Source: Minisyncoccota bacterium (lineage in GTDB: Bacteria > Patescibacteriota > Minisyncoccia > Phycocordibacterales > UBA6065). Taken from it: DNA of 64,000 nt. Shown one piece after another: positions 5,312-62,336 of the stretch (position 1 is the first letter of the stretch; each line of letters begins with the position of its first letter). The notes under the pieces were generated by a model, which was not told where the DNA came from, made no database searches, and saw nothing but the letters and a program-made list of their open reading frames with translations. The stretch lies in contig DASZXC010000003.1 in assembly GCA_035546035.1 (NCBI GenBank), positions 479-64,478 on the forward strand, read 5' to 3'. The position numbers and the translations under genes were made by a program.

Positions 5312-5968
5312 TCATGGTTTAAGCAGTTCCTTGAGAGGCTCTATGTCCGTGCGCCATCTCTCGCCGTCGAACCATTCGCCGCCCTTGAACTGGAGCTTGT
5401 AGGTGTCGGTAGGGCGGGAGAGCGAGCCGAGATATACGTATCTCTTGTTGCATTCTTTGGCCTTCTGAAGGACCATGGTCATCATGCCGAGGCCGCGCGA
5501 CGGCTCGCGCGCGTCTTCGATGTAGAAAGGGAAGGCGTAGTGGAATATGTTCGCGCTGCGATATCCGATAACGAAGCCGATCTGCGAAGATCGGCGCGCG
5601 TCGCCGAATACGAGGAGCAGGTTGAAGTTGCTCTTGTCGGCGTCGGTGATGACCTCGCGCGCCTTGTTGGCGGTAAAGACGCTGTCGCCGAATTTCGCGT
5701 AGAAATCCTTGGCGAGCTTGCCGATCTGCCAGGAATAATCCTTGTAGGGCAGGGCCTCGGCCTCGAGGGCGAGATTTTCGGCTTTGCGGAGGATGCGCCG
5801 GTTCTCGCTCGAGAGTTCGAATCTGGAGAGATCGACGCGGAACGAGCGCGTCTGGTTCATGACGCCCTTGCCGACGCGCGTGAAGACATAGCCTTTATCG
5901 TACATCCGTTCGATGTTTTCGGGAGAAAGATCTGCTATGACCCGGCTGTCCCATGTGAGATATGACAT
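5312..5968 (-). CDS. Arginyl-tRNA--protein transferase / Bpt-like aminoacyl-tRNA-protein transferase family protein
   Basis: 218 aa: RSFRVDLSRFELSSENRRILRK (ATE_N-like signature) and RYVYLGS (ATE_C-like YLGY region). No Cys-rich N-terminal motif is present, so the assignment is tentative. Confidence 0.4.
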   Translation of the reverse strand: MSYLTWDSRVIADLSPENIERMYDKGYVFTRVGKGVMNQTRSFRVDLSRFELSSENRRILRKAENLALEAEALPYKDYSWQIGKLAKDFYAKFGDSVFTANKAREVITDADKSNFNLLLVFGDARRSSQIGFVIGYRSANIFHYAFPFYIEDAREPSRGLGMMTMVLQKAKECNKRYVYLGSLSRPTDTYKLQFKGGEWFDGERWRTDIEPLKELLKP

Positions 5969-5996: not shown

Positions 5997-7130
5997 CTAG
6001 TGAAGCCCTATCCAGACGCCGATGAGCACCATGCCGAGGTGCACGATCCACATGCGCATGATGACTTTTTCCTCGCTCCAGCCTTTCAATTCGAGGTGAT
6101 GATGCAAGGGCGCCATGCGGAATACGCGACGGCCGAATACGTGGCGACCGACGGATTGCACGAGTACGGTCGCAGCTTCGGCATAGAACATGAATGCGAT
6201 GAAGGGAAGTATGGCCATGCTGTTCACCGCCAATGCGTTGATGGCGAGCAATCCGCCGAGGCCGAGCGATCCGACGTCTCCCATCTGAAAGCGCGCAGGC
6301 TTTACGTTGAAATAAGTATAGGTGATGAGCGCTCCCACGGTTACCGCGTTCAGTATGGCGAGAGCGTCATAGCCCGCGATCCACGACAGGAATGCGAGCG
6401 CGCCGAATGTCGGGATGAGCATGCCTCCGGCCAAGCCGTCCATGCCGTCGGATACGTTCACGGCATTGGCGGTGAACATGACGACGAAGATGATGAGGGG
6501 AATAAGGAAGCCGTCGATCGAGACGAGCCCGTGAAAAGGGACGTATATGTCCCGCCACGCTTCGCCGAGCTTGTAATAGATCCACCAGACGGATACGGCG
6601 CCCGCGGCGAACTGGAGCAGGAGCTTTTCATGGACGAGGACGCCCGTACGCTGTTTGGATCCGAATATAGTCGTCGCGCGCTTGAAGACCGTCCAGGGCA
6701 GCGTGACGACGAGCCAGAGGCGGTAGAGGATGTTCTTGTGGACGCGTATGAGCGTCATCGTCTGCGACAGGCTCCTCTGGCGGCGGCCAGAGCCGAACGT
6801 ATTCAAAAGGTCGTCGAATGCGCCGAGAGCGGCGGACAAAAGCATGACGCCGACCGGTACCCACGTGTATCGGCGGTCCCAGTCAAAGAAATAGGCGAGC
6901 GCGGCGACCGTTACGATGACGAGGAGACCGCCCATGATCGGCGTATTCGCCTTTTCCGATCGGGATTCGAGGCCGAGCGTCTTGTCGCCTTCCGATTTGC
7001 GGACGATCCTCCCCCGGCGGAGGATCTTTATCAGAAACGGCGCCCATGCAAGGCTCGTCAGGCATGCTACGATGCCGAATCCGATGATGGTCGTAAGGCT
7101 ATGTATCTGAAGGGGGAGAAAGTCCGTCAT
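5997..7130 (-). CDS. mraY: Phospho-N-acetylmuramoyl-pentapeptide-transferase
   Basis: 377 aa polytopic membrane protein with NAVNVSDGMDGLAGG, MGDVGSLGLG and HHHLE motifs. The 494-aa antisense ORF 5913-7397 is rejected. Confidence 0.9.
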   Translation of the reverse strand: MTDFLPLQIHSLTTIIGFGIVACLTSLAWAPFLIKILRRGRIVRKSEGDKTLGLESRSEKANTPIMGGLLVIVTVAALAYFFDWDRRYTWVPVGVMLLSAALGAFDDLLNTFGSGRRQRSLSQTMTLIRVHKNILYRLWLVVTLPWTVFKRATTIFGSKQRTGVLVHEKLLLQFAAGAVSVWWIYYKLGEAWRDIYVPFHGLVSIDGFLIPLIIFVVMFTANAVNVSDGMDGLAGGMLIPTFGALAFLSWIAGYDALAILNAVTVGALITYTYFNVKPARFQMGDVGSLGLGGLLAINALAVNSMAILPFIAFMFYAEAATVLVQSVGRHVFGRRVFRMAPLHHHLELKGWSEEKVIMRMWIVHLGMVLIGVWIGLH

Positions 7131-7170: not shown

Positions 7171-7986
7171 TTAAGCCAGGAATACGAGCCGGCGTACCGA
7201 GACTTCTTTTGCCCCGCGGGCGCTTTCAAGCGTATAGTTTTCCGGACCCGTCGCTCCTTTCTCTTTCCAGACCCCTTTGCCGCGGGCGATGTCACCCATG
7301 GTCTCGCCGGCAGGGACGAATATGTCGCCTTCGCGTACGCCGTGATCGGTCGTGCCGTCGGAAGGCCATGCGTATGAGTGCGCATATGAAAGCCTGATAC
7401 CGTTCGACGATCGCTCGACTCCCGTGATGACGAGCATGTGGTTATAGAGTCCGTCCTTACCCGTGCCCATGAACGTGATTATATCGCCCGGGCGCGCGTC
7501 GCTGGCCGCGATCTCGGCGCTATTCCTTTCGTTTGCGAACGTCGCTACGCCCATGTTCTCGGCAGGACGGAGACGCGCTATGAGCGAGCCTATGAAGCCC
7601 GAGCGGTTCGATCGCACGAACGCCGAGATGTTTCTGCCGCGCTTTTCCTGGGCGACGGCATTCAATACATGGTATGCGAAACCGGAGCAGTCGACGCCGA
7701 GGTCATGGGCGACGAGGAATTCCTTTAGTTTATCCGTCGAAAGCGTCGCCACGTTCACGCGCGAGTGCTTCGCGTCTATGTCCGCCTCTTCGGCGATCTC
7801 TTCAGGCGAGCCTTTGCCTTTGAGGACGCGCAACTGGCTGCGCGTCTTATGGCGCTTATTATTGAAATATGGGCACGAAGGCTTGGTCCCCAAAGGAAGG
7901 GCGAGGTATGCGTCGATGACCGCTCGAGCCCTGCCTTCGAGCTTCTCGGTCTCCGGTTTCGTTATCTCTACGGCGTCTTGATGCAT
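7171..7986 (-). CDS. NlpC/P60-family papain-like cysteine peptidase/amidase (no signal peptide seen)
   Basis: 271 aa. GVDCSGFAYHV (catalytic Cys) and GDIITF...LYNHMLVI (catalytic His) match the NlpC/P60 pattern. Its start overlaps the upstream ATP-grasp stop by 19 nt, suggesting translational coupling. Confidence 0.5.
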   Translation of the reverse strand: MHQDAVEITKPETEKLEGRARAVIDAYLALPLGTKPSCPYFNNKRHKTRSQLRVLKGKGSPEEIAEEADIDAKHSRVNVATLSTDKLKEFLVAHDLGVDCSGFAYHVLNAVAQEKRGRNISAFVRSNRSGFIGSLIARLRPAENMGVATFANERNSAEIAASDARPGDIITFMGTGKDGLYNHMLVITGVERSSNGIRLSYAHSYAWPSDGTTDHGVREGDIFVPAGETMGDIARGKGVWKEKGATGPENYTLESARGAKEVSVRRLVFLA

Positions 7987-9203
7987 GATGCGATGAATCG
8001 TCCCAAATCGTTCAGCTGATCGTGGGCCTTCATTATACCCGTCTCTGACTGAATACGGAAAAGCTCTTTATTATGATCCGTGTTCTCGTATGCCATGACG
8101 GCGAGGCCCTGTCCGCGAAGCGCGTCGATATCGACCGATGCGGGAATCTCCGTGACGCGCTTAACGATCTGGGCGCCTGATATGAGAGGCAGCCTTTCAG
8201 GAAAAGGCATATCGAGAAGCGCTGCGATGTGGGCTTCGAATATCGTCGGGGCGTCTGCCCCGGTTTTTTTCTCGAGCGCGGATTCGAATACGGCCGATGC
8301 GGGCTGCCGGGCGTTTATCTCCAAAAGCGATACCTTGCCCGTAGCGGCGTCATATATAACGTCTATGCCGAAGAGGCCTTTCCAACCCTCGGATTCGAGC
8401 CGCGCCCCGATCTGTTTTGCCATGCCCGCGGTGCTTTTGAGCAGGCCTCTGAAAGAAGCGTCGGCCGCCAGGCTCCAGTCATTGCCTATGGTCGAGAAGG
8501 GAAGGTCGGTGAAAGGCTCGAGGCCCGTGATCTGGTAGCTCGGATTTCCCATGAGCGTGCCTTTTCCGACGACGACGTTCATCGTAAACACGGGTCCGTC
8601 CACGAAATCGGCGACGCGGCATTCGCGCCGGGGAAAATCGGCGCGGATCTTCTCCAGGTCTTTGTCCGACTCGATCACGTATGTGCCTTGGCCCGTATGC
8701 GAGTGATTGAACTGGAGGACGGATTTTTTGCCCGCGTACGCAACGTCCTTACAGAGCATGATCCGATGCGGAGGCAGGAGACCGGCGATGTCATCGAGCC
8801 ATCGGACCTGCGACACCTTTTCCTCGACTTCTTTTGCGAGCTCCGCGCTCGGGTTCAAAAGATTCCAGCCTTTCTCTTTCGCCAACCGCTCTATGCGCGC
8901 CGTGTTCTGGAATACCAGAACGTCCGCCCCGCGTTCGGCGATCGTTTTCTGTGTTTCAGGAAGAGAAAGGAGGTCGAACGTATCCAGAAGCTCGCCGGCA
9001 TCCGCGCCTTTTGCTAGCCGCACGTTCTCGGAGAATCTCTTCCGGACCTCGCGGCCGTACGGCGTATCGTTCGAAACGATGAAATAATTTCCGGCAGGCT
9101 CCATACCGAGCGCGCGCTCTATGTCGCGGGTCACGTAGACAAGCGGCTTTTTAAGGCTAATATGCATTAATGATAGTATACTTATCGCCGAAACTATGGC
9201 CAC
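7968..9203 (-). CDS. ATP-grasp family ligase (pre-ATP-grasp N-terminal domain plus ATP-grasp), unknown substrate
   Basis: 411 aa: SVLQFNHSHTGQGTYVIES, ECRVADFVDGPVFTMNVV, GIDVIYDAATGKVSLLEINARQP. The annotated start overlaps the divergent rsmI start by 8 nt, so the true start may be a downstream Met (MHISLKK). Confidence 0.6.
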   Translation of the reverse strand: MAIVSAISILSLMHISLKKPLVYVTRDIERALGMEPAGNYFIVSNDTPYGREVRKRFSENVRLAKGADAGELLDTFDLLSLPETQKTIAERGADVLVFQNTARIERLAKEKGWNLLNPSAELAKEVEEKVSQVRWLDDIAGLLPPHRIMLCKDVAYAGKKSVLQFNHSHTGQGTYVIESDKDLEKIRADFPRRECRVADFVDGPVFTMNVVVGKGTLMGNPSYQITGLEPFTDLPFSTIGNDWSLAADASFRGLLKSTAGMAKQIGARLESEGWKGLFGIDVIYDAATGKVSLLEINARQPASAVFESALEKKTGADAPTIFEAHIAALLDMPFPERLPLISGAQIVKRVTEIPASVDIDALRGQGLAVMAYENTDHNKELFRIQSETGIMKAHDQLNDLGRFIASCIKTP

Positions 9204-9912: not shown

Positions 9913-10056
9913 ATGAGATTCAGGAACGTCATCATCGCCTTGGGTGTTCTGATAGTCATCGAGCCTTTACTCCGTTTCCCTTCATCGTGGGACGACGTCG
10001 TATACGGCATACTTGGCTTTTTCGTCATCGCGCTGGCGTACATGAGCCGCGGATAA
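9913..10056 (+). CDS. Candidate 47-aa two-TM small membrane protein (not in track), possibly leaderless
   Basis: ATG 9913 lies 7 nt after a perfect TATAAT (9901-9906). Translation MRFRNVIIALGVLIVIEPLLRFPSSWDDVVYGILGFFVIALAYMSRG has two hydrophobic segments. No SD. It could equally be a short upstream ORF / promoter region for the downstream gene. Confidence 0.25.
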   Translation: MRFRNVIIALGVLIVIEPLLRFPSSWDDVVYGILGFFVIALAYMSRG

Positions 10057-10071
10057 TCTTTCACATACCGA

Positions 10072-11313
10072 GTGTCAGGGAAGAACACCAAACAGAGCGT
10101 TCGAGCGTACAGGATAGGCGTCGGCCTATTCCTGCTTTTTATGTTCCTCGCCATTTTCCTCTATGCGGCCGGGCCGCTCTTCGAGCAGACGACCTATGAG
10201 AATAAGCCTGTCGAGGTCGCGACGACCACCGTACCCGTTCCGGTCGGCCGCCAGGCTACCCATGTGCCGACTCCGGAGCCGGTCAAAGGCATATATATGA
10301 CGTCGTGCGTCGCCGCGACGCCTTCGCTCCGCGTGAAGCTCGCCGACCTCATAGACGAGACCGAGCTCAACTCCGTCGTTATAGACATCAAGTCGTTCGA
10401 CGGGCATATCTCGTTCATGCCGGAGAATCCCGCGCTCAAAGACGCCGTCGGCGGATGCTATGTCAAAGACATGCAGGATTTCATCGACACGCTCCATGCG
10501 AAGGATATATATGTGATCGGCCGCGTCGCATCGTTCCAAGACCAGTACATGGTGGCGAAGCGTCCCGACCTCGCTGTCAAAAAAGAGAGCGCGACGTCTA
10601 CTGTCTGGCGCGACTATAAAGGCATCGCGTGGATAGACGCGTCGTCGGTCGAGCACTGGAAGTATCTCGTAGACATAGCGAAAGACGCCCATGCGATCGG
10701 TTTCGACGAGATAAACTTCGACTACATACGATTCCCGGCCGACGGCAATATGAAAGACATCTGGTATCCGCTGTCGGGGAAGAAAGACAAGAGCCAGGTC
10801 GTCAGGGGATTCTACGAATACCTCCATCACGAGCTCTCGCCGCTCGGCATCACCATATCGGGCGACCTCTTCGGCATGACGACGACCAATACCGACGACC
10901 TGAACATCGGGCAAATACTCGAATACGGATTGGCGAACTTCGATTACGTGATGCCGATGGTCTATCCGTCGCATTACCCGGACGGATTCTACGGGATCCC
11001 TGACCCGAACAAGGACGTCTACAAGGTCGTGAAGATCTCCATGGACAAGGCCGTCGCTCGCGCCGCCGCGACGACGACCCCGATCCTCACGGATACCCGT
11101 ATCGGTACCTCTACGCCCGCGGTCTATGCGAAGCCCGTATGGGACAGCAAGAAGCTCCGCCCGTGGCTTCAGGATAATAACTATCCGGTCACGTACACAG
11201 CTGAGATGGTGAGGGCGCAGATACAGGCCGACTACGATTCGAGCGCGACGAGCTGGTCGCTCTGGAATGCGGGGAACAAATATACGAGGGCGGCGCTCGA
11301 GCCGAAGCCGTGA
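10072..11313 (+). CDS. Membrane-anchored putative glycoside-hydrolase-like TIM-barrel protein (GHL/DUF4015-like)
   Basis: 413 aa with an N-terminal TM anchor. Motifs GIYMTSC, VVIDIKSFDG, GFDEINFDYIRFP, MPMVYPSHY recall the glycoside-hydrolase-like families. Assignment is from memory of the family patterns only. The antisense 458-aa ORF is rejected. Confidence 0.45.
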   Translation: MSGKNTKQSVRAYRIGVGLFLLFMFLAIFLYAAGPLFEQTTYENKPVEVATTTVPVPVGRQATHVPTPEPVKGIYMTSCVAATPSLRVKLADLIDETELNSVVIDIKSFDGHISFMPENPALKDAVGGCYVKDMQDFIDTLHAKDIYVIGRVASFQDQYMVAKRPDLAVKKESATSTVWRDYKGIAWIDASSVEHWKYLVDIAKDAHAIGFDEINFDYIRFPADGNMKDIWYPLSGKKDKSQVVRGFYEYLHHELSPLGITISGDLFGMTTTNTDDLNIGQILEYGLANFDYVMPMVYPSHYPDGFYGIPDPNKDVYKVVKISMDKAVARAAATTTPILTDTRIGTSTPAVYAKPVWDSKKLRPWLQDNNYPVTYTAEMVRAQIQADYDSSATSWSLWNAGNKYTRAALEPKP

Positions 11314-11386
11314 TATTGACTTTAGATTAAAATCATTATAGGATAGCAAGGAACTTTCCCAAGCGTTTCCTCGTTCCTTATATCTG

Positions 11387-11671
11387 ATGAATATTAAAAC
11401 CATAGCTCTATCCGTACTGGTGATCCCTGCCGCTGTCCTTGCCGGGCTTTGCATAAAATTCGGCGTGCTGCTCGTGCTGGGCAGTTTCCTCGGAATCCTC
11501 ATTGCTCTGTCTATCGTCGTGGTCCTCTTCGCTCTCTATCAGATGAGGCCTCGATGCGAGAACGACAGCTGCAAGTCGAGGCTCATCTTCAGCGGCACCT
11601 GCTCCCGATGCGGCAAGCCGCAGACGAGCTATCAGGCGGTCTCGAAGGTCCGCCGGTGCCGCGCGATCTGA
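11387..11671 (+). CDS. Small membrane protein with C-terminal Cys4 zinc ribbon (hypothetical)
   Basis: 94 aa: two hydrophobic helices, then CENDSCKS...CSRCGKP. Followed by an intrinsic terminator at 11696-11728. Confidence 0.4.
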   Translation: MNIKTIALSVLVIPAAVLAGLCIKFGVLLVLGSFLGILIALSIVVVLFALYQMRPRCENDSCKSRLIFSGTCSRCGKPQTSYQAVSKVRRCRAI

Positions 11672-11695
11672 TCGCCGGCGTTCGCCGTCAGACGA

Positions 11696-11728
11696 GCCGC
11701 TCTCATACCGAGAGCGGCTTTTCCTTTT
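11696..11728 (+). terminator. Rho-independent terminator (gccgctctc-atacc-gagagcggc-TTTTCCTTTT)
   Basis: Hairpin plus T-run downstream of the small membrane protein gene. Confidence 0.6.
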
Positions 11729-12106
11729 CGCCTTCCCGCGCTTTCGCGGTCTGGACAAAATCCGGCGATTCGATATAGTTTCGAAGGTCTTGTTCGCCGG
11801 CAACAAGCCCCTCGCTGAGGGGTTACGGTTTCCTCTCAGGAGCTTCGCCGGTATTTTACAAAATACATAACGATGCACCCACACGCCAGACGTACCATTG
11901 TCCTCGGTCCCAGCCTTCCCAAAGTCGATCCGGAAAAACCGGTTCCCGAACGCTCCTCGCGGAGCGTGCCGGAACCCGTGATTCCCGTCGGCTGCGGATT
12001 GGCGAGAGCCCGGGCCATCAAGGAAGATGCGGCCCGTCGCGGCCAGTCCGCGCCGGTAGGCCTCTCCGCGATGCCTGCTTGAACGTCGTGAAGTGCAAAA
12101 GCCTGC

Positions 12107-12140
12107 GCGGCCGCCGATGCATATCGGCGGCCGCTTTTTT
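12107..12140 (+). terminator. Strong rho-independent terminator (12-bp stem gcggccgccgat/atcggcggccgc, loop gcat, TTTTTT) ending 9 nt before the ATG of the VirD4-like gene
   Basis: Perfect 12-bp GC-rich stem plus six T. Its placement immediately upstream of a start codon is attenuator-like. Confidence 0.7.
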
Positions 12141-12148
12141 GTGACATA

Positions 12149-13993
12149 ATGATGGAAATGACCAGCGACGACAAAGTCACATACTTCGCCGAGACCGATG
12201 CCCGGAACAAGCGCGTCAAATTCGGGATCAAGGCAAAAGACCGCACCCGCCACGTCTATATCATCGGCAAGACGGGCATGGGCAAATCCACTCTCCTCGA
12301 GAATATGGCGGTGCAAGACATTCAGGGCGGGGAAGGCTGCTGCTTCATAGACCCTCACGGCAAGACCGCCGAGCTTCTCCTCAATTACGTTCCCGAAAAT
12401 CGCCTCAAGGACGTGCTCTATTTCGCGCCGTTCGACGTCGAGCACCCGATCGCGTTCAACGTCATGGAGGACGTCGGCTACGACAAGCGCCATCTCGTCG
12501 TATCCGGCCTCATGTCCACATTCAAAAAAATATGGGCCGATGCGTGGAGCGCCCGCATGGAATATATCCTCTCGAACACGCTTCTCGCGCTCCTCGAATA
12601 TCCAGGAGCGACGCTCTTGGGAGTGAACAAGATGCTCTCTGACAAGGACTATCGCAAAAAGGTCGTCGACAACATCAAAGATCCGGCGGTGAAGTCGTTC
12701 TGGGTGGACGAGTTCGCCAAATATACCGACAGGTTCGCCGCCGAAGCGACTCCGGCCATTCAGAACAAGATCGGCCAGTTCACGAATAACCCTCTCATCA
12801 GGAATATCATCGGCCAGCCGAAATCGTCGTTCGACCTTCGCAAGATGATGGACGACAGGAAGATTCTCATCGTGAACCTCTCGAAAGGCCGCGTGGGCGA
12901 ATCGAACGCCAATCTCCTCGGCGCTATGCTCATCACCAAGATATATCTCGCCGCGATGTCGCGCGCCGACGTCTCTGACAAGATAATGAAGACCCTGCCG
13001 AACTTCTACCTCTATGTGGACGAATTCCAGTCCTTCGCGAACGAGTCTTTCGCCGATATCCTCTCCGAGGCGCGAAAATACAAGCTGAACCTGACCATGG
13101 CGCATCAGTACATCGAGCAGATGTCCGAAGAAGTGCGCGCGGCGGTGTTCGGCAACGTCGGTACCATGATCGTGTTCCGGGTGGGCTCGTACGACGCAGA
13201 GGTCTTGGAGAAGGAATTCGCCCCGCAATTCACGGCTGAAGACATCGTGAACCTCGGCTTCGCGCAGATATATCTGCGGCTTATGATCGACGGGATAGGT
13301 TCGCAGCCGTTTTCGGCGACCACGCTGCCGCCGATACCCGAACCCGCCGTCACGTTCAAGGAGCAAGTCGTCCAGGGCTCGCGCGCCCAATTCACCCAAG
13401 TTCGTCCGGTCGTCGAAGAGCTCGTCCGCATGCAGACCTTGGGCGCGACGCCCGACAGGCCTCTCGCGACCATGAAGGCAGAGCCGCGCGACAGGACCAG
13501 CACGGCGGAAAGGGCTGACAGGCCGATGCCGCCGGCGCCTTCACCTATGCCGCCGCGCGAGCCGCGCAGGGAAGAGAGGCGTGACGATCGCCGCGAAGAT
13601 CGCAGAGACGACAGGCGCCTGCCGCAGGAGAATAATCGTCGCCACGAGACGCCGCCGATGGACGCGAGCGACGGATTTCATGGTTTCGACGCTATCAAGG
13701 CCATGGTCACGCCGCGTCCGCTTCAGAATAGCCAGAGCCAAGATCAGAAGCGCCCGAACGATCAGAGACCCGAAAAAAAGGGCGTGACCGAAGAGTCGCG
13801 AAACGACCTGCGTCAGGCACTCGCTTCTATAGCGAAGCCTCCGGCTGCTCCCAAAGAAGCGCCGAAGCAGGAGGCGAAGAAGGAAGCGGCTCCTCCGGCG
13901 CCTCCTGTCGCGCCGCGACCGCCTGAACTCAAGCATTCCGGACCGGCGAACGAGGTTCCGGAAGACGTCCTTAACAAACTCCTTGATATGTAA
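12149..13993 (+). CDS. P-loop ATPase of the VirD4/TraD/TraG type IV coupling-protein-like (DUF87/AAA-like) family, with an Arg/Asp/Glu/Pro-rich disordered C-terminal tail
   Basis: 614 aa: Walker A IIGKTGMGKST, Walker B YLYVDEFQSF, TraG-D_C-like LNLTMAHQYIEQ. No N-terminal TM segment. C-terminal ~170 aa are low-complexity (REPRREERRDDRREDRRDDRR...PPAPPVAPRPP). Confidence 0.55.
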   Translation: MMEMTSDDKVTYFAETDARNKRVKFGIKAKDRTRHVYIIGKTGMGKSTLLENMAVQDIQGGEGCCFIDPHGKTAELLLNYVPENRLKDVLYFAPFDVEHPIAFNVMEDVGYDKRHLVVSGLMSTFKKIWADAWSARMEYILSNTLLALLEYPGATLLGVNKMLSDKDYRKKVVDNIKDPAVKSFWVDEFAKYTDRFAAEATPAIQNKIGQFTNNPLIRNIIGQPKSSFDLRKMMDDRKILIVNLSKGRVGESNANLLGAMLITKIYLAAMSRADVSDKIMKTLPNFYLYVDEFQSFANESFADILSEARKYKLNLTMAHQYIEQMSEEVRAAVFGNVGTMIVFRVGSYDAEVLEKEFAPQFTAEDIVNLGFAQIYLRLMIDGIGSQPFSATTLPPIPEPAVTFKEQVVQGSRAQFTQVRPVVEELVRMQTLGATPDRPLATMKAEPRDRTSTAERADRPMPPAPSPMPPREPRREERRDDRREDRRDDRRLPQENNRRHETPPMDASDGFHGFDAIKAMVTPRPLQNSQSQDQKRPNDQRPEKKGVTEESRNDLRQALASIAKPPAAPKEAPKQEAKKEAAPPAPPVAPRPPELKHSGPANEVPEDVLNKLLDM

Positions 13994-14056: not shown

Positions 14057-15220
14057 ATGTCAGCAAAGAAAGCCCTTATATTCTCCCTCGCATACTATCC
14101 TCGCCTCGTCGGCGGGGCTGAAGTCGCCGTGAGGGAGATGACCGACCGTATCGATCCGGCGGACATCGAATTCCACATGGTCACCATGAAGGCCGGATCT
14201 CTGCCCGTGCAGGAGAAGATCGGCAACGTGACCGTCTACCGCGTCGGCCTTCCGGTGTCGTCGGGGCCGCTCTTCGCGCTCAATAAATACCTCTATCTCT
14301 TTCTTGCGCCGCTCAAGGCGTCGTGTCTCCATCGCTCGATGAAATTCGATTTCACCTGGAGCATCATGGCCTATGTCGCCGGCTTTCCCGGCCTTTTCTT
14401 CAAGCTCTTCCATATGGACGTGCCGTTCGTGCTCACGCTCCAGGAAGGCGATCCGATCGATTATATGCTCCGCAAGACGCGGTTCGTGCGGGGGACGTTC
14501 CGCAAGATATTCGCGCATGCCGACCGCATCCAGGCCATCTCGAAATACCTGGCCGATTTCGCGCGCGATATGGGTGCGACCGCAAAGCCCGTCGTCGTCC
14601 CGAACGGCGTAGATGTGGAGAAGTTCTCGAAATTCATCGTGGGCGAAGAGCTCCAGGCGATAAAGCGCGAGATCGGCAAAATGCCGGACGACGTATTCAT
14701 CGTCACAGCCGGACGCCTTGTGGAAAAGAATGCGGTCGGCGATATTATCGGCTCTCTCGTATACCTTCCGGCGAACGTGAAATTCCTCAATATCGGTTCG
14801 GGTCATCTGGAGCAAGGACTCAGACAACAGGCGAAACGGCTTGGCGTGGATAACCGCGTCATATTCAAAGGCTTCGTTCCGCATGAATCATTGCCCGGAT
14901 ACCTTCAGGCTTCCGACATATTCATCCGCCCGTCTCTCTCCGAAGGATTCGGCAATTCATTCGTCGAAGCGATGGTCGCAGGCATACCCGTCATCGCTAC
15001 GAGGACGGGCGGCATCGTCGACTTCCTCCGCGACAAAGAAACGGGGCTTTTCTGCGAAACGAATTCGCCGCAGGACATCGCCCGCAAGGTCCAGATATAT
15101 ATGCAGGACAAGAGCCTCCGCACCGAGATCGTGGATAATGCCATGCACATGGTCGTAGACCGCTATGACTGGAGGACGGTCGCGAACGACATGAAGGAGA
15201 AGGTTTTCGACCTGGTATGA
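14057..15220 (+). CDS. Glycosyltransferase family 4 (GT-B, retaining)
   Basis: 387 aa; C-terminal EGFGNSFVEAMVAGIPVIATRTGGIVDF, the canonical GT4/GT1 E-x7-E region. Confidence 0.8.
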   Translation: MSAKKALIFSLAYYPRLVGGAEVAVREMTDRIDPADIEFHMVTMKAGSLPVQEKIGNVTVYRVGLPVSSGPLFALNKYLYLFLAPLKASCLHRSMKFDFTWSIMAYVAGFPGLFFKLFHMDVPFVLTLQEGDPIDYMLRKTRFVRGTFRKIFAHADRIQAISKYLADFARDMGATAKPVVVPNGVDVEKFSKFIVGEELQAIKREIGKMPDDVFIVTAGRLVEKNAVGDIIGSLVYLPANVKFLNIGSGHLEQGLRQQAKRLGVDNRVIFKGFVPHESLPGYLQASDIFIRPSLSEGFGNSFVEAMVAGIPVIATRTGGIVDFLRDKETGLFCETNSPQDIARKVQIYMQDKSLRTEIVDNAMHMVVDRYDWRTVANDMKEKVFDLV

Positions 15221-22980: not shown

Positions 22981-24123
22981 ATGAAGCGCCGACTTTTTCT
23001 CGTATTCCATGGCAGGTTCCCGGGCGAGAAAGCAGCCTCTCTTTTCGCGGCGAAAAGCGCCGAGGCTTTTGCGGATGTCGGTCTCGAGGTGACGGTTCTT
23101 GTTCCAAAAAGGAAGGGTGTCGATAGCCAGACTGCATATGACTATTTCGGCGTGAGGAATGTTTTTTCGATCGTCGAGATACCTGCCACCGAATTGTCGC
23201 CGGTCTTCCGGAAGATATCGTTCTGGATGAGCTACCGCTCGTTCTCAAAGGGTATTGTTGCCTATATAAAAGCTCATGCAGTCTCTGACGACATCGTCTA
23301 TTCGAACGAAACCTTGCCTCTGCTCGCCGCGTCGCGCGTCGCGGGAAATACTTTCTATGAAATGCACGATTTTCCGGAGAGCAAGCTCGCGCTCTTCGGC
23401 CGATTTTTGAAAAAGATGAAATGGGTGCTCGTCCATAACAAATGGAAGATGGAAAAGGTCGAGAGGGCATTCGGCATCTCTGCCGAGCGCATGCTCTATG
23501 AGCCGAATGCGGTAGATATAGGAGCTTTCGATATCTCCGTGTCTAAAGAAGAAGCTCGAAAGAAGCTTGGTTTGCCTCCGGATAAAAAGATCGCCGTGTA
23601 TACAGGGCATCTCTATGGCTGGAAGGGCGTGGATGCGCTCGCGCAGGCAGCAGGCATGCTCGCCGATGATTTTCTTGCCGTATTCGTGGGCGGTACCGAT
23701 GCCGACGTCGCAGCGTTCAAATCGAAATACGGCGACTCGCCGCGGATTCTGATCGCAGGCCACAAAAAGTACGCTGAAATCCCTGTCTGGCAAAAGGCCG
23801 CTGACGTTCTGGCGCTTCCTAATTCGGGTAAAGAAGCGATATCTCTCTACTACACGTCGCCGATGAAGCTGTTCGAATACATGGCGAGCCGGAGGCCGAT
23901 CGTCGCATCCGACATCCCATCCATCCGCGAGATCGTGGACGGATCGTCGGCGTCTCTGGTCCCGCCTGATGATGCAAAAGCCCTCGCGGATGCGATCCGG
24001 ACGCTCGCTTCTGATTCTCAAGGGGGAGAGGCTCTCGCCCAGAGCGCTTTCGCGCGGGTTTCCAGTCATACATGGGAGAAGCGCGCCCGTCGCATCCTTT
24101 CTTTCATAGAAAAAAATGGTTAA
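22981..24123 (+). CDS. Glycosyltransferase family 4
   Basis: 380 aa; GT4 C-terminal domain (KLFEYMASRRPIVASDIPSIREIV). Confidence 0.75.
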   Translation: MKRRLFLVFHGRFPGEKAASLFAAKSAEAFADVGLEVTVLVPKRKGVDSQTAYDYFGVRNVFSIVEIPATELSPVFRKISFWMSYRSFSKGIVAYIKAHAVSDDIVYSNETLPLLAASRVAGNTFYEMHDFPESKLALFGRFLKKMKWVLVHNKWKMEKVERAFGISAERMLYEPNAVDIGAFDISVSKEEARKKLGLPPDKKIAVYTGHLYGWKGVDALAQAAGMLADDFLAVFVGGTDADVAAFKSKYGDSPRILIAGHKKYAEIPVWQKAADVLALPNSGKEAISLYYTSPMKLFEYMASRRPIVASDIPSIREIVDGSSASLVPPDDAKALADAIRTLASDSQGGEALAQSAFARVSSHTWEKRARRILSFIEKNG

Positions 24124-25519
24124 GGATTTTGTTGCGCGCTATAAAGTCGAGGTCATCATATTCTGCATCGCCCTCGCCGCGAGGCTCGTACTTTTTTCCA
24201 TCGTTTTTGCCCACAATGACGGCAATCTCCTGAATTCGATCCACGGCGACGACGGATATTATGAATTGTCGCAGGGAATCCTGAATGGCCACGGCATGAC
24301 GTGGGATACGCAGCCGCCGTTCGCACCGAATCCTTTGCGCCCGCCGGTCTGGCCGTATCTCATTGCGTTTTTTGCGGGCGTGTTCAAAACATACTGGGCC
24401 GTATTCGCTTTCGAGCTTGTCCTCGGAAGCCTTATCCCAGTCCTCGCATACAGGGTCGCACGTATGCTCTTCGGGCATCGCATAGGGAAGTGGACAGCGA
24501 TCATCATGTGCGTCGAGCCGTACCTCATGTTGTTTTCGATCATCCTCTATACCGAGACGTGCTTCATGTTCTTTTTCCTCCTTTTTCTGATATTCCTCAT
24601 CAGATATATAGAACGGCCGACGATCCGGTCGGCGCTCTACGCGGGTCTGACGCTCGGCCTCGCCACGATGGTGAAGCCGACGGTTCAATATCTGCCGATA
24701 TTGATACCGATCGCGCTCGCGATCATGTGGCGCGAACGTTTGCGCGGTCCACAACAAGGCGGCGAAGGTACGGCTTTAGCGAAGCAATGCGCGATATTCC
24801 TTCTGATGTTCTTGGTCGTCATCGCTCCGTGGCTCGTGCGAAATCACCAAGCGTTCGGCGTCTGGGGCATGAGCGCCCAACCGGAATTCAATCTGTACGT
24901 GTATCTCGCGCCGACGCTGCTCGCCATAGACAACGGCACCGACTTCAAAACGGAATACGCCGCATTTGTTGAAAGAGGCGGCTTCGATCCGAATTCCATA
25001 ACGCTCGCCAATGCGGATATCTATAAATCGAAGGGGCTCGATGTTATCAGAGACCACAAGCTCGCGCTCATGAAATCAGGGCTCATAACGCTCGTCACGT
25101 TCTTTACCCATGACGGCATGCTCACGGTGCTCGGATATTCAGGCATTACGATACCGAACGTCGTTTCGAAGCCGGTCATACAATTAGCTTCTCATCCGAT
25201 CGAGCTTGCATCGGTCATGGCGCGCTATGCGGCAAGCCCTGCTGTGCTCATCATCCTCTTGCGCTTGTTCTGGATCGCCGTGACGATATCGTTCGTATAC
25301 GGCGCATGCAGATATCTCCGCAGGGGAGACAAAGCCGCTGCCGCGATCATGATTCTCATAGTCCTCTATTTCGCCGGTACGACGGCGATCAACGGATTCG
25401 GCGTGAATGCGCGATTCAGGATGCCGGTGGACGCTATCATCCTCGGATTCGCTCTATTTGGACTTTTTTCCATAAAAAGGGATAATACGCGCACTGAAAT
25501 CCCTGCAGCTGCTCGATGA
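24116..25519 (+). CDS. Polytopic GT-C-type glycosyltransferase (ArnT/PMT_2/GT39-83-like)
   Basis: 467 aa, ~11 predicted TM helices; N-terminal loop with DDGYY; overall architecture of polyprenyl-phosphate-sugar-dependent GT-C enzymes. Confidence 0.55.
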   Translation: MVKDFVARYKVEVIIFCIALAARLVLFSIVFAHNDGNLLNSIHGDDGYYELSQGILNGHGMTWDTQPPFAPNPLRPPVWPYLIAFFAGVFKTYWAVFAFELVLGSLIPVLAYRVARMLFGHRIGKWTAIIMCVEPYLMLFSIILYTETCFMFFFLLFLIFLIRYIERPTIRSALYAGLTLGLATMVKPTVQYLPILIPIALAIMWRERLRGPQQGGEGTALAKQCAIFLLMFLVVIAPWLVRNHQAFGVWGMSAQPEFNLYVYLAPTLLAIDNGTDFKTEYAAFVERGGFDPNSITLANADIYKSKGLDVIRDHKLALMKSGLITLVTFFTHDGMLTVLGYSGITIPNVVSKPVIQLASHPIELASVMARYAASPAVLIILLRLFWIAVTISFVYGACRYLRRGDKAAAAIMILIVLYFAGTTAINGFGVNARFRMPVDAIILGFALFGLFSIKRDNTRTEIPAAAR

Positions 25520-25526
25520 TCCTGCG

Positions 25527-27092
25527 ATGAAGCTTTCTATCGTAATCCCCGCATATAACGAGGAAAAGACCCTGGAGGAGATCCTTTCCCGGGTCTTTGC
25601 CGTCTCTATTCCCGGATGGACGACCGAGATCGTTGTCGTTGACGACGCTTCGACCGACGGGACGCCGGATATACTCAAAAAGCACGGAAAGAAGCTAAAA
25701 TCGGTCAGACTCGATAAGAATTCAGGCAAGGGCACGGCCGTCCTCCGCGGCCTCTCTGAAGCGACAGGCGACTATATCGTCATACAGGACGCCGACCTTG
25801 AATATCACCCGAAAGATATCCTGTCGCTTGTCGTTGCATTAGATGTAGGTGGCGCGGCCGGCAAGCAGGCCGTATATGGATCGCGTAACCTGTATCATGA
25901 GAAGCGCGAGGGATTCATATTCCAGCGCCTTGGCGTTTGGAGCATCACTAAAATGATCAATGTGCTCTATGACGCGGACCTCACTGACGTCTGGACGTGC
26001 TACAAGCTTTTTCCGGCAGACGCCAAAAAATATTTCGTGCCGGGCCGATTCGAATCCGAGCTCATATTTACCGCCGCGCTCCTCCGTAACGGCTACGATA
26101 TCCGCGAAGTCCCGATATCCCATGCTCCCCGCACGGCTGCGGAAGGCAAAAAGATCCGCTATCGCGACGGATTCCGCGCCATACAGCTTCTCTTCGCCGA
26201 CAGGCTCGGCAATATCCGGAAACCGCAGATCCGCGTGACGGGGGACCACTCCCACATCATCTGCTGTCCGTTCTGCAAGGCGGATCTCCTTAAAACCGAA
26301 AACGGCCTCGTCTGCAAAACCCACGGGCATTTCGTTGTGGATGAATCGCGCCGACCGATCCTTATCGAGAAAGGCGTATATGAGCATAACAGCGACCAGC
26401 ACGAATCGGGCGTGAACTGGCTCAAATCGTTCTTCAAGCAATTCCCGAAGGTCTATTATTCGATCTGGCACATGTTCTGCCCGGTCATGATGCTCGTGAA
26501 TGGCCCGCGCATGGTGCTCGACAGGGTAGAAGAGGGCTCAACGGTCATAGACGTAGGCTCCGGTCCCGAGCGCCTCGGCAAGGAATTCATAAACGTGGAT
26601 ATATTCCCGTTCCCCGAAGTTGACATCGTGTCTGATGCGACGCAATTGCCGTTCAAAAACGATACGATCGATGCCGCCGTGTCCGAATCGCTGTTCGAGC
26701 ACGTGCCGGATGCGCATAAGGTCGCGCGCGAAATGGTCCGCGTCGTGAAGCCTGGGGGCTATGTATACGTTTCCGCTCCGTTCATGCATCCGTACCATGC
26801 GTCGCCCGACGATTTCAATCGCTGGACGATATCGGGCCTGAAGCATATGTTCTCTGACCTCGATATCGTCGAATCGGGCGTGAGGTCGGGGCCGTGGTCA
26901 ACGTTCCTCATGTTCCTCGCGTACTGGCTCGGCGTCATATTCTCGTTCGGCTCGCGCAAAGCCGCGCCGTTCATGGCGCACGTATTCATGCTCGTACTCG
27001 GCCCGCTCAAATATCTCGATTACATATTCATATATATTCCAGGGTCTGATGCGGTAGCGACGCATCTGTATATATTGGGAAGGAAGAAATAA
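25527..27092 (+). CDS. Fusion protein: GT2 (Dol-P-Man/Glc synthase-like) domain + Trm112-like Zn-ribbon + class I SAM methyltransferase domain + C-terminal TM segments
   Basis: 521 aa. N-terminus KLSIVIPAYNEEKTLEEIL...VVDDASTDGT...IQDADLEYHP (GT2/DPM-like), then CCPFCKADLLKTENGLVCKTHGHF (Zn-ribbon), then VIDVGSGPERLG...LFEHVPDAHK...VKPGGYVYVSAPF (MTase), then hydrophobic C-terminus. Confidence 0.7.
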   Translation: MKLSIVIPAYNEEKTLEEILSRVFAVSIPGWTTEIVVVDDASTDGTPDILKKHGKKLKSVRLDKNSGKGTAVLRGLSEATGDYIVIQDADLEYHPKDILSLVVALDVGGAAGKQAVYGSRNLYHEKREGFIFQRLGVWSITKMINVLYDADLTDVWTCYKLFPADAKKYFVPGRFESELIFTAALLRNGYDIREVPISHAPRTAAEGKKIRYRDGFRAIQLLFADRLGNIRKPQIRVTGDHSHIICCPFCKADLLKTENGLVCKTHGHFVVDESRRPILIEKGVYEHNSDQHESGVNWLKSFFKQFPKVYYSIWHMFCPVMMLVNGPRMVLDRVEEGSTVIDVGSGPERLGKEFINVDIFPFPEVDIVSDATQLPFKNDTIDAAVSESLFEHVPDAHKVAREMVRVVKPGGYVYVSAPFMHPYHASPDDFNRWTISGLKHMFSDLDIVESGVRSGPWSTFLMFLAYWLGVIFSFGSRKAAPFMAHVFMLVLGPLKYLDYIFIYIPGSDAVATHLYILGRKK

Positions 27093-27118
27093 AAAAACCG
27101 CCGCGCGGCGGTTTTTTG
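27090..27118. terminator. Bidirectional intrinsic terminator (AAAAAAAccgccgcgcggcggTTTTTT)
   Basis: GC-rich palindrome flanked by an A-run and a T-run, between convergent genes. Confidence 0.8.
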
Positions 27119-27123
27119 CATGT

Positions 27124-27912: not shown

Positions 27913-27949
27913 TGGGGTTATCGCACGTGCTACTCATTATACATAGTCC

Positions 27950-29637: not shown

Positions 29638-29643
29638 GCGATT

Positions 29644-32519: not shown

Positions 32520-32521
32520 GG

Positions 32522-33280: not shown

Positions 33281-33289
33281 AGGCCGATG

Positions 33290-34135: not shown

Positions 34136-34144
34136 GGCTTAGTT

Positions 34145-62303: not shown

Positions 62304-62335
62304 AGAAAAATCCCGCCTGTAGGCGGGATTTTCCA
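62304..62335. terminator. Bidirectional intrinsic terminator shared by nrdB (+) and rnpB (-): gaaaaatcccgcctgtaggcgggattttcc
   Basis: Palindrome cccgcc-tgta-ggcggg flanked by an A-run and a T-run in both orientations. Confidence 0.8.
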
Positions 62336-62336
62336 T

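Follow-up and report, generated by a model that had tools for sequence, protein, structure and literature searches.

A soluble VirD4/TrwB-like ATPase of Paceibacteria whose gene is preceded by a terminator hairpin and a candidate leaderless-type promoter

The ATPase gene, its neighbours and its product

The stretch of DNA analysed here (64,000 nt, hereafter the window) carries at 11387-13993 a gene for a VirD4/TraD-type ATPase, preceded by the gene of a small membrane protein and by a gap of about 450 nt that holds two terminators, a promoter-like site, several hairpins and a 69-codon open reading frame (Table 1). The region is flanked by a DUF4015 gene and by a GT4 glycosyltransferase gene. 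Across 80 related loci, a DUF4015 homologue was found upstream on the same strand in 47 and sequence homologous to the GT4 gene downstream in 61, and the gene order DUF4015-ATPase-GT4 recurs in relatives.

Table 1. Features of the ATPase locus in window coordinates.
Feature	Position	Strand	Basis or detail
DUF4015 putative glycosyl hydrolase with N-terminal membrane helix	10072-11313	+	Pfam DUF4015, E 2.4e-86
Small membrane protein, 94 aa	11387-11671	+	ORF list; two membrane helices and a Cys4 zinc-ribbon-like tail
Intrinsic terminator of the small membrane-protein gene	11694-11728	+	Stem 11694-11720, 11 pairs, then T-rich tail
Promoter-like site of the middle unit, TGGACA-16-TATAGT	11752-11779	+	10 of 12 consensus matches
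Pair of small hairpins, side by side, close to the predicted 5' end of the middle transcript	11790-11808 and 11809-11823	+	Read from the sequence
Pro-, Arg- and Ala-rich ORF of 69 codons	11873-12082	+	ORF list
Long imperfect hairpin inside the 69-codon ORF	11907-12015	+	z = -4.4 for 11900-12020
Strong intrinsic terminator predicted to end the middle unit	12107-12140	+	12-bp stem 12107-12134, 10 G-C pairs, 4-nt loop, TTTTTT 12135-12140
Candidate extended -10 element TGACATAAT of the ATPase gene	12142-12150	+	CATAAT preceded by TGA; ends 7 nt before ATG 12158
ATPase ORF	12149-13993	+	ORF list
ATPase (nucleotide-binding) domain	12158-13441	+	Pfam, conservation in 36 homologues, AlphaFold2, Foldseek
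Walker A, GKTGMGKST	12266-12292	+	Invariant in 36 homologues; starts at residue 37
All-alpha insertion in the ATPase domain	about residues 108-232		Helical block between Walker A and Walker B (AlphaFold2)
Walker B, FYLYVDEF	13004-13027	+	Invariant in 36 homologues
Disordered charge- and proline-rich tail	13442-13993	+	pLDDT, alignment of 36 homologues
Tail motif 1, PPMDASDGFHGFDAIKAM	13652-13705	+	Kept across 36 homologues
Tail motif 2, KKGVTEESRNDLRQALASI	13778-13834	+	Kept across 36 homologues
Tail motif 3, EVPEDVLNKLLDM	13952-13990	+	Kept across 36 homologues
GT4 glycosyltransferase, first of four heading a large glycan gene cluster	14057-15220	+	Pfam Glycos_transf_1, Glyco_transf_4

An initial annotation, made from the letters of this DNA and its reading frames, had described the product as a stand-alone VirD4/TraD-type coupling ATPase with Walker A and B and TraG-D_C-like motifs and with no transmembrane anchor, and had proposed classification by profile searches; this description held throughout. 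The protein scored above the curated Pfam cut-offs for TrwB_AAD_bind (32.7 bits, cut-off 20.5), T4SS-DNA_transf (27.5 bits, cut-off 20.1), TraG-D_C (24.4 bits, cut-off 22) and DUF87 (24.4 bits, cut-off 23.2), the PADLOC HerA and mad8 models matched it weakly, and its scores against NCBIfam equivalogs were all far below cut-off. An AlphaFold2 model of moderate quality (mean pLDDT 61) found its best Foldseek matches in Cag-beta (8dol), DotL (6sz9_A), HerA (4d2i) and TrwB (1e9s), with the DndH C-domain also among the matches; the TM-scores to solved coupling proteins were low (0.3-0.4) and the identities about 12-16%. No membrane segment was detected in the protein, in which the highest Kyte-Doolittle mean over 19 residues is 1.19. 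Among 83 family representatives with a short N-terminus a membrane-like segment was present in four, and in remoter relatives with 270-490 additional N-terminal residues it was often present.

More than half of the residues of the first sequence in an alignment of 36 homologues are invariant in the ATPase domain, and the family comprises 6,114 clusters (50% identity) at E <= 1e-30. The ATPase is a soluble VirD4/TrwB-like coupling-protein homologue, highly conserved across Paceibacteria and among the most conserved proteins of that group. Among the FtsK/HerA P-loop translocases it belongs to the VirD4/TrwB coupling-protein branch and, by analogy with these enzymes, would form a hexameric ring that moves or hands over a polymer at the expense of ATP; its hexameric state, its substrate and its partners are predictions.

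The tail was correctly described at the outset as highly charged and of low complexity, its last 183 residues containing 24 R, 12 K, 16 D, 17 E, 31 P and 21 A. The AlphaFold2 model places it in disorder (pLDDT below 50 at residues 431-544 and 559-599), with helical islands at residues 545-559 and 602-610. Three motifs recur across the 36 homologues, separated by linkers that vary in both length and sequence, and these motifs probably dock the ATPase to partner proteins. They would offer a direct handle for partner pull-downs.

Transcription units and the start of the ATPase gene

Two membrane helices in the 94-aa protein are consistent with its residues 1-55, which are hydrophobic throughout, and its four cysteines are arranged as C57-x4-C62-x9-C72-x2-C75, in agreement with the tiny two-helix Cys4-ribbon protein of the initial annotation. 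Neither Pfam nor NCBIfam contained a family for it. The 96-aa ORF of related locus L001 is 38% identical to it (dN/dS 0.51), and no other sequence relative was detected among the 80 loci; by eye, similarly built small ORFs can be made out in L002, L029 and L202. The protein is restricted to a small lineage, and two terminators separate its gene from that of the ATPase, both of which run counter to the earlier suggestion of a conserved small membrane partner. The first of these terminators, originally placed at 11696-11728, is kept in sequence in L001 and L002, and the unit encoding this lineage-restricted zinc-ribbon protein would end there.

The second terminator, also recognized in the initial annotation by its 12-bp stem and TTTTTT run, has a hairpin energy of -25.5 kcal/mol and is nearly identical in L001. 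Its distance to the start codon had been put at 9 nt. The T-run in fact ends 8 nt before the first of three candidate ATG codons, and the homologues start at the third, ATG 12158 (MTSDDK...), so that 17 nt lie between the T-run and the likely start; in the closest relative an in-frame stop comes after the first ATG (ATGATATAA). The absence of a clear Shine-Dalgarno (SD) sequence was likewise noted correctly, but it is not particular to this gene, as an SD-like 4-mer precedes one of 52 genes in the window.

Between this terminator and the start codon lies the candidate extended -10 element, whose hexamer CATAAT carries one mismatch and for which no -35 box is evident upstream. The arrangement of CATAAT, 7 nt and ATG is common to the window, L001 and L002. 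More widely, 41 of 79 homologous loci carry a -10-like hexamer 5-10 nt ahead of the ATPase ATG, most often at 7 nt (19 loci), then at 8 nt (9 loci) and 9 nt (8 loci), and many related loci show a terminator hairpin, then a T-rich stretch, TGTATAAT, 7-9 nt and ATG. A -10-like hexamer also precedes the start by 6-9 nt in nine of the 52 window genes, among them the MraY-like gene, secA and a Wzy-like gene. As far as sequence can tell, this spacing is the pattern of leaderless mRNA; a literature search found no description of leaderless translation in Paceibacteria.

Taken together, we judge it reasonably probable from these sequence patterns that the region 11387-13993 comprises three separate transcription units, the third being the ATPase gene with a promoter of its own. 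Transcribed from TGACATAAT, the ATPase mRNA would begin at or beside ATG 12158 and thus be leaderless, which would account both for the missing SD sequence and for a terminator that lies against the start codon. The transcription start and the efficiency of the terminator are predictions. Most likely, the hairpin beside the ATPase start codon terminates a small, separate gene that precedes it, with the promoter of the ATPase gene following, and it is for this reason unlikely to belong to a riboswitch.

The proximity of terminator and start codon had originally been read as attenuator or riboswitch architecture, in which the 450-nt gap would be a cis-regulatory leader of the ATPase mRNA and the hairpin at 12107-12140 a conditional terminator. 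A strong terminator near a start codon with highly structured RNA upstream would suit such a leader, as would the partial, G+C-rich complementarity of upstream segments to the terminator arms, the best duplexes of which reach -17 and -19.6 kcal/mol. However, no antiterminator was found that competes well with the terminator, and keeping the terminator 3' arm unpaired would cost 21 kcal/mol overall. A scan against Rfam, which had been proposed together with a check of leader conservation, returned no family for 11300-12400 even at E <= 10, nor any at gathering score for the window and 14 related loci. The ATPase is conserved across the whole class, whereas its upstream DNA aligns with that of L001 alone (67% over 381 nt), the match to L002 consisting of the first terminator. 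A leader would find no room in many relatives, where 30-105 nt separate the end of the DUF4015 gene from the ATPase gene. Moreover, the -10 element between terminator and ATG is family-wide, with a peak at about 7 nt from the ATG, and the middle unit has its own promoter-like site and ORF. The leader reading is therefore not supported, and we regard it as very improbable.

The middle unit and its 69-codon ORF

The initial annotation had offered, as a fallback, that the gap encodes a small RNA or the proline-rich 69-aa ORF, and this fared better: the ORF and the two adjacent small hairpins are both present, and the unit has a terminator and a promoter-like site of its own, the latter kept, by sequence comparison, in three lineages. 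Despite diverged flanks, TGGACA and a -10-like hexamer at 16-17 nt recur in L001 (TATATT) and L002 (TAGACT). Hairpins are also present at this position in L001, in L002 and in many further loci, and the 5' untranslated stretch that contains the two hairpins of the window (11784-11872) has a fold z of -2.5. Transcription would start at the promoter-like site, yield a highly structured transcript of about 355 nt with the 69-codon ORF and stop at 12107-12140. The unit would fill the slot that separates the DUF4015 gene from that of the ATPase and that in many Paceibacteria holds a fast-evolving small ORF.

Two readings of this unit have to be weighed, namely that the ORF encodes a small protein, or that the unit (about 11784-12140) gives a structured small RNA confined to its lineage, with the ORF a by-product of G+C-rich sequence. 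At the position of the 69-codon ORF, L001 has an ORF of equal length with in-frame indels and 54% amino-acid identity (dN/dS 0.38, with synonymous sites saturated at dS 1.16), which speaks for a protein, while the differences by codon position (25, 22 and 34) are not significant. About 20 further lineages have an ORF of 57-97 aa in the corresponding slot, ending 70-190 nt 5' of the ATPase gene, with dN/dS of 0.25-0.35 in close pairs. Related small proteins with conserved peptide motifs were found in L002, L202, L203 and L208, and in A+T-rich relatives the same-slot ORFs follow an A/C-rich unstructured spacer and start ATGGCAAA; an open frame of 60 codons is unlikely to arise by chance in those relatives. 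Both observations count against the structured-RNA reading. In favour of the structured RNA, on the other hand, the ORF lacks the GC3 bias of the genome (0.67 against about 0.77), its product found no entry in protein databases, and its similarity to the small-protein family in the same slot of relatives is not significant. In addition, conservation between the window and L001 is about equal in the 5' untranslated part and in the ORF, although the synonymous sites of the latter are saturated.

The folding of the unit points in the same direction. Its predicted folding is much more stable than that of shuffled sequence or of genuine coding segments: z is -4.9 for the window, -5.1 for L001 and -4.1 for L002, whereas coding controls gave -1.0 to +1.0. 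The long hairpin inside the ORF reaches z = -4.4 by itself (Table 1). This hairpin belongs to a consensus structure common to the window and L001 that contains 10 compensatory pairs, and projecting the best fold of one of these sequences onto the other kept 71% of pairs in register, compared with 40-54% when partners were slid by 1-3 columns. Yet where one partner of a pair has changed in this comparison, pairing persists in only about half of the cases, a covariance model of the hairpin matched the window and L001 and no further copy, and the absence of an Rfam match applies to this reading as well. In our view the 69-codon ORF is probably a fast-evolving small protein; a non-coding role is possible, and a structured RNA with the ORF as its by-product appears the less likely account, albeit one that deserves serious consideration.

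Possible role of the ATPase and comparison with known systems

Orphan homologues of VirD4-type coupling proteins (T4CPs) are abundant in Patescibacteria and mostly lie far from virB4, as described in 2025, and their takeover for another function was raised by the authors in the passages drawn on here (PMC12102498, Microb Genom 2025). The window ATPase fits this published description and is most likely a member of the group. The same passages do not mention the missing anchor, the three tail motifs, the DUF4015-ATPase-GT4 order or the leaderless-type promoter.

The ATPase might instead be a working coupling protein that delivers DNA or protein to a machine for type IV secretion or conjugation whose genes lie elsewhere in the genome. 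Its best sequence and fold matches are indeed coupling proteins, and Patescibacteria carry a VirB4-centred system according to the above study (PMC12102498). That study also reports, however, that of the 5,713 coupling-protein homologues of Patescibacteria only 148 are encoded near virB4, that relaxases are rare and that in Southlakia the coupling-protein homologue was dispensable, unlike other secretion genes, which were essential (PMC12102498). The gene setting in the window argues in the same sense, being chromosomal and housekeeping with fixed neighbours. The initial annotation had noted no type IV secretion genes nearby and had proposed a genome search for secretion and competence components; in the 64-kb window, where this search was run, the first point held, as the ORFs scanned against Pfam included no gene for type IV secretion, a relaxase, a pilus or competence (about 10 ORFs at 24116-37064 lay outside the scan). 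The conserved acidic-hydrophobic C-terminal peptide, which may resemble the TraM-binding tail of F-plasmid TraD, would speak for such a machine. Given the lack of an N-terminal membrane domain and the low NCBIfam equivalog scores as well, we consider a role in such a machine improbable.

A role close to the envelope would fit the recurrent position of the ATPase between the DUF4015 glycosyl hydrolase and the GT4/Wzm-Wzt glycan cluster. We tentatively propose, as one possibility to which we would not commit ourselves, that the anchor-less ATPase is a core Paceibacteria protein taken over from conjugation for housekeeping in the cell envelope or in DNA uptake, with the tail motifs docking partners and the upstream small ORF or RNA a possible lineage-specific modulator or partner. 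The value of the locus is otherwise descriptive and lies in an anchor-less coupling-type ATPase with fixed glycan-gene neighbours and a disordered tail bearing three docking-type motifs. The candidacy of its upstream region as a regulatory RNA fails, which saves follow-up effort, and where a terminator abuts a start codon in this genome, the most likely cause is close packing of leaderless transcription units. The near-absence of SD sequences and the spacing of about 7 nt between -10 box and ATG should help in calling gene starts in these genomes.

Compared with the type IV coupling proteins VirD4, TrwB, TraD, Cag-beta and DotL, the ATPase has the same P-loop domain with an inserted all-alpha domain, exceeds the cut-offs of three of their Pfam families (TrwB_AAD_bind, T4SS-DNA_transf and TraG-D_C), has three of their structures (8dol, 6sz9_A and 1e9s) among its top matches and carries a C-terminal extension with a candidate docking peptide. 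It differs from them in having no N-terminal membrane domain, in its distance from every NCBIfam equivalog and from the solved proteins, and in its fixed chromosomal position beside glycan genes, with DUF4015 and GT4 neighbours in related loci and, among the window ORFs that were scanned, no relaxase or secretion gene linked to it. With the HerA/FtsK hexameric translocases it shares the ASCE P-loop core, the DUF87 match and the fold matches to HerA and the DndH C-domain. Different from these, no HAS-barrel or nuclease partner was seen, the matches to coupling proteins are stronger and the gene setting is unlike that of a defence or repair system.

Like attenuators and riboswitches, the locus has a strong intrinsic terminator near a start codon and after structured RNA; in contrast to them, it has no conserved aptamer and no competing antiterminator, its upstream stretch is not conserved across homologous loci, and its terminator is followed by a candidate promoter element. 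For Actinobacteria and Deinococcus, leaderless mRNAs have been described in which the -10 box precedes the start codon by about 7 nt. The ATPase gene resembles these in its sequence pattern, with a -10 hexamer 6-9 nt before the ATG, an ATG start and no SD sequence.

Start codon and probable promoter of the ATPase gene

The features listed in the initial annotation (the coupling-type ATPase with its charged tail, the terminators, the hairpins and the 69-aa and 94-aa ORFs) were all present in the window, with both terminators recovered by a scan and the two small hairpins and both small ORFs matching their description. The candidate start codons were also found, but homologues of the ATPase begin at MTSDDK, corresponding to the third ATG, which corrects the earlier start assignment; in the closest relative, the first ATG meets a stop codon at once. 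The missing Shine-Dalgarno (SD) sequence was likewise confirmed, although as a property of the genome rather than of this gene: when 52 gene starts of the window were searched at -5 to -18, an SD-like 4-mer was found before only one.

Related loci bearing ATPase homologues were fetched from species-representative genomes (80 loci), and the 60-nt stretches preceding their ATPase starts were lined up. A hexamer resembling TATAAT or TATACT, often with TGn in front of it, stands just 5' of the ATG. For hexamers matching at five or more of the six positions, the distance to the ATG peaked sharply at 7 nt (19 loci), 8 nt (9) and 9 nt (8), and 41 of 79 loci carried a hexamer at 5-10 nt. The complete order in many loci is a terminator hairpin, a T-rich stretch, TGTATAAT, 7-9 nt and the ATG. 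The corresponding window element is TGACATAAT, and the arrangement of CATAAT, 7 nt and ATG is kept in two related loci, L001 and L002. Such an arrangement would be expected for a promoter making a leaderless mRNA. In the window as a whole, a -10-like hexamer lies 6-9 nt before the start of nine of the 52 genes, several of them behind an intergenic gap (examples in the table). The near-absence of SD sequences together with these nine genes suggests that leaderless mRNAs are probably common in this genome; the literature consulted contained no specific account of leaderless translation or SD use in Patescibacteria, Paceibacteria included.

The simplest reading of the -10-like arrangement immediately before the ATG, made from sequence only, is that the second terminator would close the upstream unit and that transcription of the ATPase gene would begin anew. 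The same terminator had been taken to indicate an attenuator or riboswitch, and this regulatory-RNA interpretation of the gap is not supported. An Rfam search of 11300-12400 at E <= 10 yielded sub-threshold chance matches only; at the gathering score, matches were limited to RNase P RNA and one tRNA in the whole window and to one tRNA in 14 related loci. According to ARAGORN, tmRNA was absent both from the window and from 20 loci. By blastn across 25 loci, the upstream gap aligned between the window and L001 alone, besides short terminator-sized matches, and a covariance model of the hairpin at 11900-12022 recovered only the window and L001 from 886 kb of related sequence (89 sources). An antiterminator search gave no strong rival pairing to the terminator (-25.5 kcal/mol), and unpairing its 3' arm costs 21 kcal/mol. 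Furthermore, the DUF4015 gene ends only 30-105 nt before the ATPase in many relatives, indicating that the family as a whole is without such a leader. Some partial read-through of the terminator may still occur.

A metagenome scan with the conserved pattern of the first terminator was non-specific, matching at least 120 stretches; among the matches listed, there was neither a close ATPase relative nor a leader match beyond the terminator itself.

Positions of the features, in the window unless a related locus is named
Feature	Position (strand)	Description
ORFs beside the Mur ligase and MraY-type genes	5312-5968 (-), 7171-7986 (-), 7968-9203 (-)	218, 271 and 411 aa; no Pfam match (E <= 1e-4 or 1e-3)
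MraY-like gene	5997-7130	-10-like hexamer before start
FPSSW ORF	9913-10056 (+)	47-aa membrane ORF between the TP_methylase-family and DUF4015 genes; TATAAT 6 nt before ATG (-10-like hexamer)
DUF4015 gene	10072-11313	
94-aa gene (pep94)	11387-11671	small membrane protein
Antisense open frame	11408-13399 (-)	663 codons, opposite the ATPase gene
First terminator	11694-11720	
Promoter-like site	11752-11779	TGGACA-16-TATAGT
69-codon ORF	11873-12082	
Long hairpin of the consensus fold	~11907-12015	within the 69-codon ORF
Second terminator	12107-12134	then TTTTTT, to 12140
-10-like element	12142-12150	ends 7 nt before ATG 12158
ATPase gene	12149-13993	ATG used by homologues, 12158
Glycan gene cluster	14057-45995	~30 kb, large for a reduced genome
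Gene at end of glycan cluster span	43818-45995	-10-like hexamer before start
secA	47134-49674	-10-like hexamer before start
RNase P RNA, bacterial class A	62335-62629 (-)	144.6 bits; match covers just 295 nt of the 367-position model, hence a shortened form
Small-protein family, 46-72 aa	L002:4706-4912, L202:~2195-2411, L203:2182-2391, L208:544-753	just upstream of the ATPase
Gap with repeats	L016:~2131-2606	upstream of the ATPase

The structured unit upstream of the ATPase gene

The gap between the 94-aa gene and the ATPase gene has a promoter-like site of its own, ~355 nt before the end of the second terminator, and so would be transcribed as a separate unit. L001 and L002 retain TGGACA together with a -10-like hexamer at a spacing of 16-17 nt, although the DNA next to the site has diverged. 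Compared with shuffled sequence, the gap folds with z = -4.9 in the window, -5.1 in L001 and -4.1 in L002; the coding controls, five window coding segments and the pep94 gene, gave z from -1.0 to +1.0. The consensus fold with L001 contains 84 pairs, 10 of them compensatory, and includes a long hairpin. In a projection test, which we consider fairer than the consensus and in which the best fold of one sequence is laid on the other, 71% of pairs hold in register versus 40-54% with partners slid, and of the pairs in which one side has changed, only about half are kept. The RNA-structure signal of the gap is real, yet not decisive with two sequences. The gap is a small structured unit restricted to this lineage.

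As to its product, we lean towards a fast-evolving small protein, encoded by the 69-codon ORF on a structured mRNA. The L001 ORF is of equal length and in the same place, with indels that are all in frame (+3, +3, -6), and the two products are 54% identical with a dN/dS of 0.38, dS being saturated at 1.16. The alternative, a pure sRNA from which no protein is made, is in our judgement less likely, although it would accord with the codon-position G+C of the ORF (0.71/0.59/0.67, versus ~0.55/0.36/0.77 for real genes), with the lack of any entry among 5.8 billion proteins, where even the ORF itself is missing, and with the lack of significant similarity to the neighbouring small-protein family. 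The disordered tail of the ATPase itself shows a similar codon-position G+C of 0.71/0.51/0.67. In favour of a protein, an ORF of 57-97 aa ending 70-190 nt before the ATPase occupies the same slot, between the DUF4015 and ATPase genes, in ~20 other lineages; several of these lineages have A+T-rich genomes, in which chance would seldom leave such frames open. The slot units share a plan, consisting of a -10 box (TAGTAT), TCCGGA/TCCAGA, a hairpin, an A/C-rich spacer and a ATGGCAAA start. Also against a pure sRNA, a small-protein family of the form MPDWM...ILADDALAHQESRMAMAN is common to L002, L202, L203 and L208, with dN/dS of 0.25-0.35 in close pairs (~0.35 for L202 versus L208).

The motifs of this family are MP(D/A/S)(W/Y)M and ILADDALAHQESRMAMAN. 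Membership of the window ORF, suggested by eye from GLAR...DDA, was rejected by a shuffle test: shuffled sequences equalled the score of the window ORF in 23 of 500 cases and that of the L001 ORF in 224 of 500. A profile search with five slot ORFs against the 5.8-billion-protein database returned three proteins only, two of which were the L203 and L202 queries; no more than three members of the L002/L202/L203/L208 family occur in that database. In DUF4015-ATPase gaps of 350-580 nt (e.g. L003, L011, L020, L026, L031, L037, L038 and L039), the recurring unit follows the shared plan without alignable sequence, with an ORF of 57-97 aa followed by a terminator; the peptide motifs A-T-x-x-[DQ]-I-L-G and G-x-[KR]-H-E-[IL]-D were recognized by eye, and no Pfam family matches these ORFs. 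In L016, the usual small ORF is replaced by short hairpin-forming repeats, ccccctttagtaaaggggg, ccctctttatcaaagaggg and gggaggttgggagggat (the last twice).

The 94-aa small membrane protein is plausibly the product of a real gene. It consists of ~55 hydrophobic residues followed by C-x4-C-x9-C-x2-C, and its L001 counterpart, a 96-aa ORF with 38% identity, shares both membrane helices and the cysteine motif. Similarly designed proteins are present in L002, L029 and L202. No evidence points to it as a conserved partner of the ATPase: a sequence relative was found in L001 alone among 80 loci, and two terminators stand between the two genes.

Gene setting

The ATPase is 100% identical to an NCBI protein encoded on a 129-kb contig of a Candidatus Paceibacterota metagenome-assembled genome, which places the window in a Patescibacteria (CPR) genome. 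The Pfam scan covered most of the larger window ORFs outside 24116-37064. Housekeeping genes identified were those for pyruvate kinase, a Mur ligase, an MraY-type family-4 glycosyltransferase, a TP_methylase-family methyltransferase, MurB, SecA, phosphoglycerate mutase, enolase, Obg, GatB and ribonucleotide reductase. Downstream of the ATPase, the glycan gene cluster encodes, among the ORFs scanned, at least seven GT4-type glycosyltransferases, GT8- and GT11-like enzymes, FkbM and MetW-type methyltransferases, a Wzm/Wzt-type ABC exporter, an epimerase and a Wzy_C-TPR protein. Among the scanned ORFs there was no gene for type IV secretion, a relaxase, a pilus or competence, in line with the initial annotation that no other type IV secretion genes lie nearby.

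The gene order in close relatives is TP_methylase, small membrane protein, DUF4015, a variable slot, ATPase and three GT4 genes; DUF4015 is a neighbour in 47 of the 80 loci, and GT4-like sequence lies downstream of the ATPase in 61. Small ORFs bearing the FPSSW motif also precede the ATPase in L004, L006, L019, L040, L043, L048 and L057. The long antisense frame is almost certainly a codon-bias artefact of a G+C-rich gene and no real gene.

Relation of the ATPase to coupling proteins

The ATPase ORF scored above the Pfam cut-offs for TrwB_AAD_bind, T4SS-DNA_transf, TraG-D_C and DUF87, and its family is very large, with 6,114 clusters (50% identity) at E <= 1e-30. Conservation is unusually high: across 36 homologues (63-86% identity), more than half of the first ~428 positions are invariant. 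In a moderate AlphaFold2 model (mean pLDDT 61), residues 108-232 form a helical insertion in a P-loop core, and Foldseek against the PDB placed the coupling proteins Cag-beta (8dol) and DotL (6sz9_A) at the top, followed by HerA, DndH and TrwB. The NCBIfam equivalog models TraD, CD1115 and CedD were matched only far below their cut-offs. Together, the Pfam, Foldseek and model evidence places the ATPase in the coupling-protein branch of the FtsK/HerA translocases. Membership in a defence system was considered and rejected: PADLOC gave only weak similarity to HerA and mad8, and the gene setting was unsupportive.

The charged tail described earlier was confirmed as the last 183 residues, which are rich in Arg, Lys, Asp, Glu, Pro and Ala and predicted to be disordered. 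It is more than a low-complexity stretch, for the alignment shows conservation of three short motifs in it, PPxDxxDGFxxLxxLK, (K/R)KGVTxESRNDLRxALASI and a C-terminal KEVPEDVLKKILE, the latter two predicted helical, while the linker varies in length and composition. These motifs may serve as docking sites for partners.

As first noted, no membrane-like segment is present in the ATPase. Of the 150 best cluster representatives, 39, among the more distant relatives P0184-P0270, have ~130-460 extra N-terminal residues, which shifts Walker A to residue 166-496; the extensions of nine that were scanned gave no Pfam match. Many of the extended forms begin with a hydrophobic segment, suggesting that membrane-anchored forms exist elsewhere in the family.

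Two defining features of working coupling proteins are missing from the ATPase: the N-terminal membrane domain and, among the scanned window ORFs, a linked relaxase or secretion apparatus. According to the passages on such homologues in a 2025 study, 5,713 VirD4-type coupling-protein homologues are spread over 2,918 Patescibacteria genomes, with just 148 of the 5,713 lying near virB4 and relaxases being rare (PMC12102498), so that a stand-alone ATPase is of a known kind. Those passages make no mention of a missing anchor, tail motifs, a glycan-cluster gene order or a leaderless-type promoter. In Southlakia, they report, the homologue is dispensable while other secretion genes are essential, and the authors point to a possible co-option of these coupling-protein homologues for other functions (PMC12102498). 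The ATPase joins this already known, functionally unassigned group.
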